Of a stretch of 64,000 nt of DNA, positions 2,212 through 64,000 are shown one piece after another. The notes below the pieces were generated by a model. That model was not told where the DNA came from. It saw only the letters and a program-made list of their open reading frames with translations, and did no database searches. Numbering within the stretch: position 1 is the first letter of the stretch; every line of letters begins with the position of its first letter. The stretch is from Escherichia phage VEcB: sequence record NC_052663.1; one strand, written 5' to 3'. The translations under genes and the position numbers were made by a program.

Positions 2212-4625
2212 TGGCGAATTTTCCAACATATCCTGCTACGACACTAGAACAAGGTGTTGATCTGGTTATATTCTCGTCTAACCAGATGCATGATGTTATT
2301 AATGGAGATGCTACAGCAACTGTAGAAACCGAAACAGGTTTAATACCTACACTGCGTAAAGCACTTGTTGATAACTTCTTCTTTAAGAGTCCTGTTGCTT
2401 GGTCAGCAGGATCAACTGAAACTGTATTTAACCAGTTACGTTATTTTGAAAACGGTATCTTGAGTGGGTACTATTATGCCCCATCTGCCACTACTGCGAA
2501 CCCTGTACCTATGCAGGGCACACCTGTAGGAGACAGTAACTGGACTCTGTACGCTCTTAAAACTGAACAGTTAGCTTCAGATGTGTATCCTTGGTATTTT
2601 AAAGGTGCTACAGGATATGAAACAGAAATCAGTCCTCCTTATATCTTTGATAATGCTATTGTCACCATTAACGGTGTAATTCAGATTCAAGGTGAAGCAT
2701 TTACTATCAGAGATAGTAAAATTATTCTGGCAGAACCATTAGGTTTAGATCCGTCTACTGGTCTACCTAACAAATTGTTTGCTTTTATTGGTAAAACAAC
2801 AGCCTCTACTTCTTACGTAGAGAAAAACCTTTTGTCATCTACCACTGGTGCAGCAATGGTTGGTCTTCCATCTGGAGGCAACCTGTTACAAGCTCAATAC
2901 TTTGTAACGCCTGAGCAGTTTGGTGCAATTGGTGATGGAGTTACCGATGATACTCAAGCAATTTTAAAAACTATTACTTTCGCTAACACGAATAACATTC
3001 AAGTACGTGCAGATAAGAATTATAGATTCACAAGCTCAATTGCTATGTCTGGTATTCGTTGGTATGGTGGTACATTCACTGGTAACGGTGGAACAATGAT
3101 TTCTACTGTGTCCTGTTGGATGGAAAACGTTCGCTTTGAAAAATGTTATGTTAAGATGTTAGGTGGTGATTGCCGATTCTATCGTAATATCTTCTCCAAC
3201 GCAACATCTACAGCAGCATTCTTAATGCAAGCAATGACAAGTGAAGGTACGTTGGACTTCAGTTACAACGAAATGTATGGTTGTAAATATGCGATCCTGC
3301 AACAAGGTACTGGAGAAGTAATGACCTATGGGCGTTACTCTAACAACTATATTCACGATATCAAAGGTGATGCTATTGAACTTAACGTAGTTCAAAAACA
3401 CTACACTGAAGGTTTGATTATCGAGAATAACCACATTGCTAACGTAGATGCTTCTGGACAAGGGGCAAACTGGGGTATTGGTATTGGTGTAGCAGGTAGT
3501 GGCCCATATGGTGTTGATGTTCCTGATTCACAATATGTACGTAATTTCAGTATCGTTGGGAATAGGGTTTACAATTGCCGTCAATGTTTACACGTTGAAA
3601 TGGGTAAAAACTTCACAATACGTGATAATGAAGTTTATCCTAACACAGCAGTTTCAACAGGTACAGGTTTAACTACTTGTGGTGTTGCATTATACGGATG
3701 CCAAGATTTTGAAGTTGATGGTTTAACTGGTTATCTGCTCAATGATCCTTCTGTTTCAACACGTATGGTCTTTATTGACTGGGGTGTTAACAGTGGAAGA
3801 TATGCGGGGCCACCAATTAACTTTACAATTAAGAATTTGGATATTCCAGAATCTTCAATTGAGATTGCAACATCTGGATCAGATGCCTGGGAAAACTCTA
3901 CAATTGTTAGTAATATCAATTGTAATGTTTTTAAATGGCGTGGGCTACCATCTAGCTCTACCTTTAATAATATTCGTTGCCGTAGTATTGACTTTATTGG
4001 TCAACACGGAAGCGGAGAAGGAAGTGGTGGCGGTTTCTATACTCGCAGCCAATTCACGTATATGAAGTGGGTAGGATGTACAGCACTTAGCGGAGATGAA
4101 ACAACAGTTTCTTTTGCTAAAATCTACACTGATCGTTGCGATCAGGTTGGAAATAACTTTGGTGTTCCAACTGCTGTTGATGGTACAGGTCATCGTGGGC
4201 CAGTTTTAACTACTATTTCTGAACAATATTTTACAACTTATGATGAATTCCCAGGTGGGCGTGAATTCCCTACTGGAACAGTTATTCATTGTGCAAGCGG
4301 TAAAAAACATGTTGTTACAGTAGGTGGTGCTTTCTTTAGTGCCAACGAGAAAATAAAAGCAACTGTTACAGGTCAAACCTATCTACAGTCTAATGCTTTA
4401 AACTGGGCTAGTAATGGCTACGCTAAAGCAGCAGGTACTAAAATTGTTATTCCAGGTGCAGGTGCAAATGGCGGCGATCTTGTGACAACTATAGCACGTG
4501 CTACATATGTGACAAATAGTTTGTACACAATAGATATTGCAGATCCAATTGTAACACCTACAGCAGAGAATACACAAATCAAAGCTCTGAACCCTGTTAC
4601 TTTTGTTACTGTCAATAATGCTTAA
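2211..4625 (+). CDS. Tailspike / depolymerase with right-handed beta-helix (pectate-lyase-like) domain
   Basis: 804 aa; motif QFGAIGDGVTDDTQAILK typical of the N-terminus of pectate-lyase-fold beta-helices; repetitive G/N/T-rich beta-strand-like sequence; hairpin terminator downstream. Confidence 0.65.
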   Translation: MANFPTYPATTLEQGVDLVIFSSNQMHDVINGDATATVETETGLIPTLRKALVDNFFFKSPVAWSAGSTETVFNQLRYFENGILSGYYYAPSATTANPVPMQGTPVGDSNWTLYALKTEQLASDVYPWYFKGATGYETEISPPYIFDNAIVTINGVIQIQGEAFTIRDSKIILAEPLGLDPSTGLPNKLFAFIGKTTASTSYVEKNLLSSTTGAAMVGLPSGGNLLQAQYFVTPEQFGAIGDGVTDDTQAILKTITFANTNNIQVRADKNYRFTSSIAMSGIRWYGGTFTGNGGTMISTVSCWMENVRFEKCYVKMLGGDCRFYRNIFSNATSTAAFLMQAMTSEGTLDFSYNEMYGCKYAILQQGTGEVMTYGRYSNNYIHDIKGDAIELNVVQKHYTEGLIIENNHIANVDASGQGANWGIGIGVAGSGPYGVDVPDSQYVRNFSIVGNRVYNCRQCLHVEMGKNFTIRDNEVYPNTAVSTGTGLTTCGVALYGCQDFEVDGLTGYLLNDPSVSTRMVFIDWGVNSGRYAGPPINFTIKNLDIPESSIEIATSGSDAWENSTIVSNINCNVFKWRGLPSSSTFNNIRCRSIDFIGQHGSGEGSGGGFYTRSQFTYMKWVGCTALSGDETTVSFAKIYTDRCDQVGNNFGVPTAVDGTGHRGPVLTTISEQYFTTYDEFPGGREFPTGTVIHCASGKKHVVTVGGAFFSANEKIKATVTGQTYLQSNALNWASNGYAKAAGTKIVIPGAGANGGDLVTTIARATYVTNSLYTIDIADPIVTPTAENTQIKALNPVTFVTVNNA

Positions 4626-32463: not shown

Positions 32464-33624
32464 TTAGTAAGAACGACCACCAAACACATACTCTGTGTAG
32501 TTTTTACGTTCTTTGTTTTTAATAACAACTTCAATGTTGTTACCTTTATCATCGGTGAACACAAAGTGATAACCGTCACCACCCATTGTACGGATGTGTT
32601 TTTCATCATACGTCAGCAAGATACGGTCTACACCCCAGTAGTAGTCACCTTCTTCATCTTTGTCTTCTACTGTAACGACCCCTTCCATTTCAGGAAGATG
32701 TTCTTCTCCTAGCTTATGGTCTACAGCTACAACATAACGATTACCGCTAAACAAACCCTGTGCTGTCATACCGTCAATATCGGTATCTGCCGAAACATCT
32801 CCTGTACGATCTACACCGTTGACTTTCAGAAGTTTAACTTCTTTTGCAGCATAGCGGTGTTCAGTAATACTGATACCCATTAATGCAAGTGCATCAGAGA
32901 ATTTGTCATTAGGGTAACGGTTAAGTTCTTCTACTAATGACTGAACAATATCAAAGTTCAAGTCCACGGACAGATTATAAAGCGTTTCAAAATCTGGTAA
33001 AAAGGCTTTGTTCTCCAGATTTTTAGCCAGATAATCATCCATAGTAGCTTTAGGTAGTTTCTTATAGCTAAAACTGTAGAAAATACGGCTAGGACGATTA
33101 CGCAAAAATTCTGATACATAACCATCATTTTTAGTCAATACAAACAGCTTGTCATAACCACCAACACCATCCAGCAGGGTAAGCAAACCATCTTGTGCAT
33201 CTTTTTCAGCATACAGTTTATCAAATTCATCGATCATAATCATCACAGGTTGTGTGATTTTAGACATAAAGTTGATAAAGCCTTCACCATTAAAAGCACT
33301 ACCGATAGAAATAGTAGGAATACCCATTTCACGAAGAGCAGAAGACAGCATTTTAGCTTGCAAAGTTTTACCGCTACCTTTCGTACCCTCAAGGAGAACA
33401 CCTGTGTTTTTACCTTTGCGGCTAAGGAACGTCTTGATAATACGTTCTGATTTATCATCAGTATCACCGTATGTTACTGAAGGGACTTCCATATCGTTTT
33501 TAGGATACAGGAAGAACTCGCCACTTTGAGTAACACCTACACCAAAAGTTCCTGCTGGAATTTCTTCAATATCTGTACCAGACTTCTGACGCAGGAAGAT
33601 TTGATTGCCGAATACTGTAAACAT
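32464..33624 (-). CDS. P-loop NTPase (AAA-like), paralog A
   Basis: Walker A GTKGSGKT, Walker B MIMIDEFDK; colinear paralog of 49159..50286 on the + strand. Confidence 0.55.
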   Translation of the reverse strand: MFTVFGNQIFLRQKSGTDIEEIPAGTFGVGVTQSGEFFLYPKNDMEVPSVTYGDTDDKSERIIKTFLSRKGKNTGVLLEGTKGSGKTLQAKMLSSALREMGIPTISIGSAFNGEGFINFMSKITQPVMIMIDEFDKLYAEKDAQDGLLTLLDGVGGYDKLFVLTKNDGYVSEFLRNRPSRIFYSFSYKKLPKATMDDYLAKNLENKAFLPDFETLYNLSVDLNFDIVQSLVEELNRYPNDKFSDALALMGISITEHRYAAKEVKLLKVNGVDRTGDVSADTDIDGMTAQGLFSGNRYVVAVDHKLGEEHLPEMEGVVTVEDKDEEGDYYWGVDRILLTYDEKHIRTMGGDGYHFVFTDDKGNNIEVVIKNKERKNYTEYVFGGRSY

Positions 33625-52330: not shown

Positions 52331-52339
52331 ATAGGTGTG

Positions 52340-52455
52340 CTAATGAGAATCATTTTCGTTTGTAAATGAGAATCATTATCATTTAACTATGTAAGTGATA
52401 ATCATTCTCAGTAAGAGAATGAGAATCATTAGCAAATGAGAATTTTATCATTTAG
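52340..52455. promoter_or_regulatory. Cluster of five 13-bp palindromes AATGAGAATCATT (and variants) resembling the Fur-box core
   Basis: Copies at ~52342, 52365, 52397 (inverted), 52430, 52434; the 52362-52380 copy matches 16/19 positions of GATAATGATAATCATTATC. Confidence 0.5.
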
Positions 52456-62516: not shown

Positions 62517-62900
62517 ATGAGCAATATCATCAACCTGGCGGCTACTGTAAACGGTAAAGACTTTAACGGCGCTGTAGATCGTGATCCTATGTGGTGCTTG
62601 TCAGTATTTAAAGGTGATTTAGTTGAAGTTAGAACAACCGAAGGGTATAGCGATGATTATAAATGCGAGATCCATTTACATAACTGGTACACGGGTAAAA
62701 CTTATGCGCTGAATCACGCGTTTATCGGGAAAATTGAATATCGTGAGATGATCGACGAAGAAACGGGGCAAGATTTTAGCCAGCATGTTTATATTCGTTC
62801 CGAAACATTAGCCGAACGTTTGATCGAGAAAATGAAAGCAAAAAATAAAATTAATTTATCTCATTGGATTGATATAACAAACGATCCTGCTTATCAGTAA
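62517..62900 (+). CDS. Hypothetical protein (start at internal ATG)
   Basis: Promoter TTGACA-N17-TATTAT upstream; terminator downstream. Confidence 0.45.
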   Translation: MSNIINLAATVNGKDFNGAVDRDPMWCLSVFKGDLVEVRTTEGYSDDYKCEIHLHNWYTGKTYALNHAFIGKIEYREMIDEETGQDFSQHVYIRSETLAERLIEKMKAKNKINLSHWIDITNDPAYQ

Positions 62901-62912
62901 ATAACATTTCAT

Positions 62913-62945
62913 ACCAGGGCGCACAAAGCGCCCTTTCTTTTTACC
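62913..62945 (+). terminator. Rho-independent terminator closing the small-gene array
   Basis: AGGGCGC-ACAAA-GCGCCCT followed by TTCTTTTT. Confidence 0.6.
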
Positions 62946-63149
62946 TAAATAAAGATGATAGCTTTTACCTATCAAAAACGTTCACCGAAAAAAGTGAATA
63001 GATCGCGGTATCGAGCTAATCAAGGAGCAGATGAATAACCATACCATGAAGATCATAAGGCGTTTACAACGTGTTTTAGACCGCTTGTTTTTAATTTCTT
63101 CATGCAACTATCTGGCAAAAACAGCCTTTTTCTTGTCTTTCCTCTTAAA

Positions 63150-63222
63150 TAATAATCATTCTCATTTATAGCTGATTATTTATGCAATAAACTGAATAAT
63201 GTAATAATGATAATCATTCTTA
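63150..63222. promoter_or_regulatory. Two further Fur-box-like palindromes
   Basis: AATAATCATTCTCATT at ~63151 and TAATAATGATAATCATTCT at ~63202 (16/19 to the Fur-box consensus, core AATGATAATCATT exact). Confidence 0.45.
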
Positions 63223-64000
63223 ACTTAAGGCCATCTAACCTATAAAATAATAAGCTATCTAACTAAATTAAAGCTAATTATCTCACCTTTATTTATAACT
63301 TACTGTTACTATCTCATTGATAACCTTATATTAAACAACAATAACTAATATAAATCATTACCAAGCTAAATATAATCTATCTAACCTTTAAAACTATAAC
63401 TATAATCTATTGAATTATTGCACAAAGTAACTATTAAATCGTTAGTAACATTACTAAATAATTCATATCCTATCTATTTATGATCTAACCTTTACCTTCT
63501 TATCTATTACCTAAGTAATCATTTCATACAATAACTATAACAAGAAATATAATTCGCAAGCGTATCATTAGCAGCCTATGCCGGACACATAGGCGGCTAA
63601 TAATAACGCAACTACACACCCCACATAATAACCATCACCGATAGTTATTATTTGTGCTTATGTAGCTTGCAACAATTGCAAGCGCAACAATATACATGGT
63701 ATATTGTATTCCCTTACATTGTTGCGGTGCGTTATTATTAGCTAATGTTTAGAACATTGGCTATAATATAAGCTATCCAATAATAAACATAATGAATAAT
63801 GATACTGAAATGAATAATGACACTGATGATCATAATGCGCCACCTTCCAGGGGGCGCTATGTGAACACAAAGAAATCTTTCTTGTCAAGAAAAATATTAC
63901 CACTATTGCGCAAAATTATTTTTATCTGAATAGATGATTTTTCATACTATTGCCCCCTTGATTATTACTATTTGTTGAGTATAGTTATCCCTATTTGTTG

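Follow-up and report, generated by a model that had tools for sequence, protein, structure and literature searches.

A conserved bottom-strand fold beside the direct terminal repeat at the right end of the Escherichia phage VEcB genome

What are the palindromes at the right end of the Escherichia phage VEcB genome for? We analysed a stretch of 64,000 nucleotides (nt) of this phage (sequence record NC_052663.1), here called the window, in whose terminal non-coding region a reading made from the sequence alone had noticed a complex of long-range inverted repeats and had suggested a terminus, an origin or a recombination hotspot. We found that the palindromes are parts of a single fold, supported by covariation, and that the bottom (minus) strand is the strand that folds. 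As far as the sequence goes, an origin or a packaging signal is plausible, and no evidence for a recombination hotspot was found.

All the features described by the sequence-only reading were present, with coordinates off by 0-3 bases. Positions 63574-63742 of the window fold as the hairpin H1 and the long-range stem P1, which encloses three or four hairpins (about 170 bases; Table 1). When the segment 63555-63750 was folded, the z-scores were -5.8 (RNA, plus strand), -7.0 (RNA, minus strand) and -7.6 (DNA), and none of 200 shuffles was as good. The two 15-nt arms of P1 are 100% complementary, lie 117 nt apart and form the only spaced inverted repeat of at least 14 nt within 250 nt across the 64 kb. 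Extra flanking bases that had been counted with them (..AC / TTGCGG..) belong to other helices. The CCTATG...CATAGG hairpin of the sequence-only reading is H1, its perfect palindrome with a CAA loop is the hairpin P3, and the helices P2, P2a, P4 and the hairpin CAATATAC-ATG-GTATATTG are additional to its list. Between P2 and P2a lies a single-stranded stretch that is C-rich on the plus strand. An alternative pairing would lengthen H1 to 18 bp (18 nt, 89%) and open P1, and it is used by the minimum free energy structure of the minus strand. The motif (T/C)ATTAGC stands on both sides of the fold; an ATTAGC copy is found upstream of H1 in all lineages, and the Klebsiella and Citrobacter phages have additional TATTATTAGC copies downstream. 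With a covariance model, no second copy of the fold was detected in the window or in about 119 kb of related loci. The P3 half-site GCTTGCAA occurs 10 times in the window, where 2.7 copies are expected and none of 100 shuffles reaches 10. The copies at 33356, 34374, 38898, 54481, 56670, 57327, 59073 and 60691 are without a palindromic partner, and no link between them and the fold was found.

The conservation of the element was followed with a sensitive BLAST search using positions 63540-63790, which returned 131 phage records. Beyond the genus Justusliebigvirus these comprised Phapecoctavirus (phAPEC8, ESCO5 and others) and Klebsiella and Citrobacter phages at about 77-82% identity, and in these relatives the surrounding non-coding DNA was largely unalignable. 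Scans of IMG/VR and of metagenomes added 12 further copies, and 3 of 11 metagenome matches were unrelated to the fold. Among looser IMG/VR patterns, GCTTGCAA-N3-TTGCAAGC hit 38 loci and GCTAATAATA-N95-125-TATTATTAGC hit 8. From both sets only L016-L019 were taken as relatives, and the six new loci of the second pattern proved unrelated when they were folded. The region is therefore not the unconserved one that would have spoken against the earlier proposal: it is conserved across the subfamily, and the termini map alongside it.

Alignments were then evaluated with RNAalifold. In the plus-strand alignment of 20 sequences 43 pairs were obtained; compensatory changes were seen in 12 of them, and hardly any pair was broken. 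For the minus strand, 26 sequences from Justusliebigvirus, Phapecoctavirus, Klebsiella and Citrobacter phages and metagenomes were aligned and gave 45 pairs, with 99.4% of the 1170 pair cells standard and changes on both sides in 13 of the pairs. All five measures beat each of 500 shuffles of these 26 sequences, and when the partners were slid by 1-3 columns as a control, at most 4 compensatory pairs appeared. In H1, 3 of the 8 pairs show compensatory changes (GC to CG or the reverse twice, UA to CG or the reverse once) with 100% of the cells paired. P1 is likewise paired in 100% of the cells and covaries at 4 of its 15 pairs; in a close relative, arall, A-U is swapped for U-A. Among the relatives P1 is invariant in its outer ten bases, and its inner bases read ..AACGCA/TGCGTT.. 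in the VEcB window, ..AAGCCA/TGGCTT.. in phAPEC8, ..ACCGCA/TGCGGT.. in the Klebsiella phages and ..AACACA/TGTGTT.. in an IMG/VR contig. Six of the nine P2a pairs covary, and the relatives have at least six unrelated yet self-complementary sequences there. P4 covaries between lineages (CGCAAC.. or CGTAAT.., each with the matching partner), the alignment being offset by one column. The stem of P3 shows no substitutions across 28 relatives, except one G.U in the phage Paula, and its 3-nt loop is variable (CAA, TAA, TGA, TTA, TGT, TAG).

A coding region was rejected, single-base insertions and deletions together with compensatory stem changes being a misfit for a conserved open reading frame (ORF); no ORF of at least 40 amino acids (aa) lies inside 63172-63741. 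Several records carry 'hypothetical proteins' of 30-40 aa annotated across the fold (locus L001, 3752-3874; loci L005, L009 and L012, 2450-2780). Because of the same indels and stem changes, these tiny ORFs called in GenBank records are almost certainly spurious.

The folding strand was deduced from the G.U pairs. Nine pair positions are G.U on the minus strand, and A.C or C.A on the plus strand, versus one in the reverse sense. The nine include the universal U.G that closes H1, interior positions of P2a and two positions in P2, which alternate between A-U and G-U and between U-G and C-G on the minus strand and would mismatch on the plus strand. The sole reverse position is in P4 of the phAPEC8 clade, with U.G on the plus strand. 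Taken as independent events, 9 versus 1 corresponds to a one-sided binomial p of about 0.01. From this asymmetry it follows that the selected fold is that of the bottom strand, read 5' to 3' away from the DTR (direct terminal repeat). The RNAalifold energies were -57.7 kcal/mol for the minus strand (26 sequences) versus -43.4 for the plus strand (20 sequences); when the same 28-sequence alignment was used in both orientations, the minus strand gave 45 pairs at -55.6 and the plus strand 38 pairs at -44.7. This strand asymmetry does not separate RNA from single-stranded DNA.

Where the fold lies in the genome was seen from related records. The last 1.1 kb of the window matched 65 phage records by megablast, all of them phi92-like myoviruses (Justusliebigvirus, Stephanstirmvirinae), and 54 of the 65 gave a single match over at least 80% of the query at 92-97% identity. 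These alignments identify the window as the right end of the genome of a phi92-like Justusliebigvirus phage. The phi92 reference annotation gives a right DTR of 343 bp, and window position 64000 aligns to the base immediately ahead of it, i.e. to the last unique base. For BME3 a DTR of 342 bp was set by PhageTerm (PMC12210895), and Stephanstirmvirinae in general are reported to have DTR ends (PMC12695924). In phi92, UAB_1 and muut the DTR sequence AGCCTACTTTC... starts directly after the motif CTATTTGTTG, on which the window ends. The distance from the end of P1 to the DTR edge is 258 bp, so that the proposed terminus holds in one part: a physical terminus adjoins the palindromes and does not lie within them. 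The fold is placed inside the unique right end beside the concatemer junction, within a non-coding stretch that begins past the last plus-strand gene (the homologue of phi92 gp248, ending at 62900) and a terminator at 62916-62934. In phAPEC8 the fold is about 210 bp from the DTR edge, as placed by homology to the phi92 DTR. Its position beside the DTR is fixed.

A second subfamily has an element of similar layout. The terminal repeat of the V5-like phage LL12, 459 bp long and mapped by PhageTerm, lies between convergent genes in a non-coding region of 2.5 kb (PMC6658697). At 3137-3333 of LL12 (MH491969), 212 bp from the DTR edge, we found a nested palindrome with a z-score of -9. It has 18-bp perfect outer arms (3137-3154/3303-3320), 18-bp perfect inner arms and a further hairpin, is built of four copies of GGCAACTAT/ATAGTTGCC in alternating orientation and is immediately followed by the GC hairpin GCGAC-TCC-GTCGC. 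The LL12-type element occurs in 120 Vequintavirus records; several of these begin about 570-700 bp ahead of the element, as they should if the genome had been opened at the DTR. The two elements are alike in the DTR at about 210-260 bp, in a long closing stem around hairpins, in the small GC hairpin and in the large non-coding region, and the plus-strand layout of LL12 corresponds to that of the VEcB minus strand, with the DTR 5' of the fold and the small GC hairpin 3' of it. They differ in that the V5-like element is not homologous, has longer arms (18 bp twice) and is without a strongly skewed AT-rich flank; the covariance model of the VEcB fold found no homologue in LL12. Since architecture, distance and polarity are the same in two subfamilies with different flanking gene orientation, the comparison speaks for a DTR-linked function and not for an RNA gene standing on its own. 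The V5-like element is previously undescribed.

Table 1. Positions of the fold, its helices and the flanking features in the VEcB window
Feature	Position	Strand	Description
AT-rich tract	63150-63550	+	21-24% GC, almost G-free on the plus strand
Direct repeats ATCTAACC(T)TTA	63233, 63280, 63379, 63483	+	Four copies within the AT-rich tract
Alternative pairing	63563-63605	-	TATCATTAGC (63563-63572) can pair with GCTAATAATA (63596-63605)
Hairpin H1	63574-63594	-	Stem 63574-63581/63587-63594; GCCTATG (63574-63580) with CATAGGC (63588-63594); eighth pair U.G on the minus strand; conserved loop CCGGACA (plus strand); 1 nt from P1
Long-range stem P1	63596-63742	-	GCTAATAATAACGCA (63596-63610) with TGCGTTATTATTAGC (63728-63742), 15 bp perfect; closes the multi-branch domain
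Stem P2 and hairpin P2a	63613-63664	-	P2 63613-63617/63660-63664; P2a 63628-63636/63640-63648 with a 3-nt loop
Hairpin P3	63665-63683	-	Perfect palindrome GCTTGCAA-CAA-TTGCAAGC
Stem P4	63684-63726	-	GCAACAAT (63684-63691) with ATTGTTGC (63718-63725)
Inserted hairpin	63688-63706	-	CAATATAC-ATG-GTATATTG; Justusliebigvirus only; competes with part of P4
DTR junction	63968-64000	+	CTATTTGTTG twice (63968-63977 and 63991-64000); DTR from the next base, outside the window

Our tentative reading, which we hold at somewhat less than an even chance, is that 63563-63746 is a conserved cis-acting element that would act as folded bottom-strand DNA in DTR-linked replication or in concatemer maturation and packaging at the right end. 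That it would act as DNA rather than RNA, and the process it would serve, we infer. Perfect stems of 15-18 bp, three hairpins with 3-nt loops, invariant stems with variable loops and the recurrence of ATTAGC/GCTAAT outside the fold are more typical of DNA, and the flanking 400 nt, AT-rich and strand-skewed, would by analogy resemble an unwinding region. Read 5' to 3' away from the DTR, the bottom strand would present P1 around P4, P3 and P2/P2a, then the GC-rich H1 and then the AT-rich, C-poor tract. It may become single-stranded beside the concatemer junction when a fork moves leftward, when the strand is displaced from a nick at the DTR edge or when an R-loop forms, and the exposed strand would then snap into the fold. 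A protein of the phage, the terminase or else a factor for replication or priming, would recognise the invariant parts GCTAATAATA/TATTATTAGC, GTAGCTTGCAA...TTGCAAGCG and CTACAC, and this recognition would mark the start site of right-end replication or of DTR duplication and packaging. The invariant boxes would be the protein contacts and the covarying helices the scaffold. A more specific proposal, which we consider unlikely, is that the fold is the recognition or initiation signal for making the terminal repeats: the displaced strand would fold and recruit terminase or a priming enzyme, one DTR copy at the junction would become two, and the V5-like phages would use an analogous, independently diverged structure.

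Several points weigh against the folded-DNA reading. The single-stranded state of the bottom strand and the binding of a protein to it are predictions. The tolerance of G.U pairs in a covarying multi-branch fold is a classic RNA signature, and G.T is less tolerated in DNA. The deduction of the strand rests on about 10 events and could be inflated by a mutation spectrum with a strong strand bias. The fold stands apart from the cut site by the distance given above and not on it, and T7, the sole DTR phage for which experiments bear on this point, lacks a similar right-end structure. The likeness of the V5-like element is architectural only, and its core is nearly invariant in six sequences with no independent covariation.

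A small structured non-coding RNA (ncRNA) gene of about 170-200 nt, transcribed leftward from the bottom strand and acting in trans or as a primer or R-loop RNA in infection, is the main alternative, possible though doubtful. The compensatory pairs on one strand are what such a gene is expected to show, and are equally a feature of folded single-stranded DNA elements; the one-strand G.U pairs with the universal U.G closing pair, the multi-branch architecture with H1 as a 3' hairpin and the minus-strand RNA z-score all fit it. A leftward transcript would also enter the AT-rich skewed tract, like primer RNAs at origins; at the ColE1, T7 and T4 origins primer RNAs do run into AT-rich tracts. Promoter-like minus-strand hexamers are found in several lineages, but they are weak (8-10 of 12 bases) and lie at variable distances, 22-44 nt or more upstream of P1. 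No convincing sigma-70-like promoter was seen at a conserved distance on the minus strand of 14 lineages, and in a scan without phage-specific promoter types the matches were no commoner than in shuffles of this AT-rich DNA (11 found versus 11-12 expected). At neither end of the fold is there an intrinsic terminator, the sole terminator-like site being the one after the last gene, and H1 is not followed by a U-tract: the sequence after it is GGCTAATAAT on the plus strand and TGCTAATGAT on the minus strand, with no T/U run. No family of Rfam release 15 was matched (best scores 15-19 bits against gathering thresholds of 35-100, E 0.7-10), an Rfam scan of the V5-like element gave nothing above noise, and ARAGORN reported no tRNA or tmRNA gene in 62900-64000. 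Further, perfect helices of 15-18 bp would be substrates of RNase III, the stem motif recurs outside the fold, and the second subfamily, with another gene arrangement, has retained the position and polarity with respect to the DTR, which a trans-acting RNA gene would not need.

Explanations that do not involve a folded bottom strand were given less weight. In one of them, which we regard as quite improbable, a dimeric DNA-binding protein, for example the small terminase, an initiator or a regulator that binds operators, would occupy an array of direct and inverted duplex sites; no strand would fold, and the palindromes would only reflect site symmetry. The sequence-invariant P3 stem and GCTAATAATA/TATTATTAGC motif would suit such sites, as would the ATTAGC-type motifs outside the fold, whose downstream copies share lineage-specific bases, and the four alternating GGCAACTAT copies of the V5-like element. 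It leaves unexplained, however, that many unrelated sequences, all still complementary, occur in the stems of H1 and P2a, that nested long-range pairing is retained at 99.4% of the cells and that minus-strand G.U exceeds A.C by 9:1; because of this asymmetry between the strands, a pure duplex-binding-site explanation is excluded. A transcription barrier, in which the hairpins and an unstructured (rut-like) plus-strand tract with more C than G would stop rightward read-through before the concatemer junction, is more improbable still. The intrinsic terminator directly after the last gene and the composition of the next 400 nt of the plus strand (C 16-20%, G about 6%), which favours Rho loading, agree with it, but selection acts on the minus-strand fold and not on a rightward plus-sense transcript, no hairpin has a U-tract, and termination requires neither invariant stems nor a long-range stem of 15 bp. 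That AT-rich, low-complexity non-coding DNA produced the palindromes by chance is scarcely credible. The region is indeed AT-rich and repetitive, and its many short repeats of 70-80% identity are probably chance matches; this origin of the palindromes is already refuted by the z-scores of -5.8 to -7.6, by a long-range pair that is unique in 64 kb and by the 13 pairs that have compensatory changes, and it is at odds with the roughly 80% identity kept while the flanks are unalignable.

The flank of the fold on the side away from the DTR was examined in all lineages. In the 200-400 nt before the fold G is depleted in every lineage (G 4-14% versus C 14-27% in most 200-nt bins), with a weaker depletion at -400 to -200 in two Klebsiella phages, and this composition is kept although the sequence is not conserved. 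The direct repeats noticed upstream by the sequence-only reading were confirmed as four copies of ATCTAACCTTTA, with at most one mismatch, at 63233-63494; all are on the plus strand and there are none elsewhere in the window. Because the phAPEC8, Klebsiella and Citrobacter relatives retain the fold and do not have the ATCTAACCTTTA and ATCTAACC repeats, ATCTAACCTTTA is, on this sequence comparison, a genus-level feature outside the conserved core. Set beside a lambda-like model of an iteron-type origin, the region has the adjacent AT-rich, easily melted tract (21-24% GC over 400 bp) and does not have three or more direct iterons conserved among relatives. The GC skew over the window tracks gene orientation and locates no origin.

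Other observations concern the surrounding non-coding DNA. The first approximately 350 nt past the gp248 terminator (62917-63262) show 68-82% conservation with phAPEC8-like phages and contain a 46-aa ORF at 63031-63171 on the plus strand. The motif AATGA(T/G)AATCATT(C/A)T recurs and is very similar to the E. coli Fur box; judged by sequence, it could be a Fur site or a phage operator. Its copies in the window are at 63145-63168, 63203-63221, 52339-52433 (three copies) and 40471; others were seen in the phi92 DTR (L072, about 70-93 and 265-290) and in the loci L004 (2189, 2945 and 3124) and L006 (2243 and 3067), so that across the subfamily the motif is found both within the DTR and in the non-coding DNA of the right end. 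When up to 3 mismatches were allowed, GATAATGATAATCATTATC had 5 matches versus 0.05 expected. The stretch that separates the fold from the DTR contains two tandem copies of an 18-mer, AATGAATAATGA(T/C)ACTGA (63791-63826), and after them a GC-rich stem GCGCC...GGCGC without a T-run (63838-63858). Directly before the DTR cut site, at 63962-64000, two copies of a 16-nt motif that ends in CTATTTGTTG lie 23 nt apart; muut also has the duplication, and UAB_1 has a single copy. Many megablast matches stop at about 63977-63980 because of this duplication. Finally, 'Campylobacter phage' records with C. jejuni as the host (MG065639, MG065645, MG065656, MG065689 and others) are, in this region, 93-98% identical to E. 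coli phi92-like and V5-like phages, and this deposit set is likely mislabelled or contaminated.

In the literature on Stephanstirmvirinae, phi92, phAPEC8 and rV5 we found no description of this region and no transcriptome of these phages. The formation of ends in DTR phages is less understood than that in cos or headful systems, according to a 2026 review (PMC13595956). Detailed data on the recognition of the junction and the duplication of the repeat come only from T7 and T3. With the VEcB fold, a large group of Klebsiella phages and therapeutic coliphages is seen to share a sharply bounded, strand-specific element whose distance from the DTR is fixed, and which offers a precise, mutable target for asking how direct terminal repeats are recognised and duplicated. 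If it were the repeat-making signal, it would be the first defined cis-element for DTR generation outside T7 and T3 and a case of a duplex-DNA phage reading a multi-helix fold of single-stranded DNA. For annotation, the fold marks where the genome end lies in assemblies that were opened arbitrarily.

How does the element compare with known systems? The junction signals of T7 and T3 are likewise non-coding cis-elements in unique DNA immediately left of a short exact DTR, which the VEcB fold region also adjoins, with short direct repeats nearby, and folded or hairpin DNA has been proposed there in making two repeats from one. The T7 right end differs in that it has no sequence similarity and just 10-12-nt inverted repeats and CCTAAAG-type heptamer repeats, with no 170-nt multi-helix fold. 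Processing in T7 depends on the pausing of the phage RNA polymerase at the concatemer junction, and we know of no such RNA polymerase in phi92-like phages. A DNA hairpin intermediate has been reported for T7, according to a later account of that work (Chung & Hinkle 1990, as cited in PMC4281155), and hairpin priming at the termini is described for N4 in a summary (PMC3896407).

Among signals that are read as one folded strand, HSV-1 comes close: at OriS*/OriL one origin strand folds into a hairpin that is recognised by the origin-binding protein. As in VEcB, a palindrome of a double-stranded DNA virus with invariant boxes and a stem is thought to be read folded on one particular strand. The virus and its proteins are unrelated, however, OriS is a single palindrome of about 45 bp and no closed multi-branch domain, and the VEcB fold is known from sequence and not from origin activity. 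The ssi-type signals, such as the complementary-strand origin of phage G4 with its three hairpins, plasmid ssi/Frpo and the N4 promoters, are read by primase or RNA polymerase only when single-stranded. They share with the VEcB fold a strand-specific folded DNA of about 100-300 nt with several hairpins. The N4 single-stranded promoter is a 5-7-bp stem with a 3-nt loop, and P3, P2a and the inserted hairpin also have 3-nt loops but stems of 8-9 bp. In contrast to VEcB, a DTR myovirus that injects duplex DNA, ssi-type signals act on DNA that enters the cell or replicates single-stranded, and no sequence match was found.

If the VEcB element were an RNA, a packaging role like that of the phi29 pRNA (RF00044) would be the natural analogy, since this too is a structured nucleic acid of about 120-170 nt encoded no more than a few hundred bases from the end of the genome of a defined-end phage. 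Phi29 differs in having protein-primed ends and no DTR, the pRNA has a promoter and a defined transcript, and its model was not matched at E<=10 beyond noise. By sequence or by any defining feature tested, the VEcB fold is a member of none of the T7/T3, N4, HSV OriS* and G4-type systems. Taken together, it is a real, previously unannotated conserved structure that takes its place among the structured cis-elements at viral genome ends, and its probable role is that of a replication or packaging signal not described before, or else of a small RNA.

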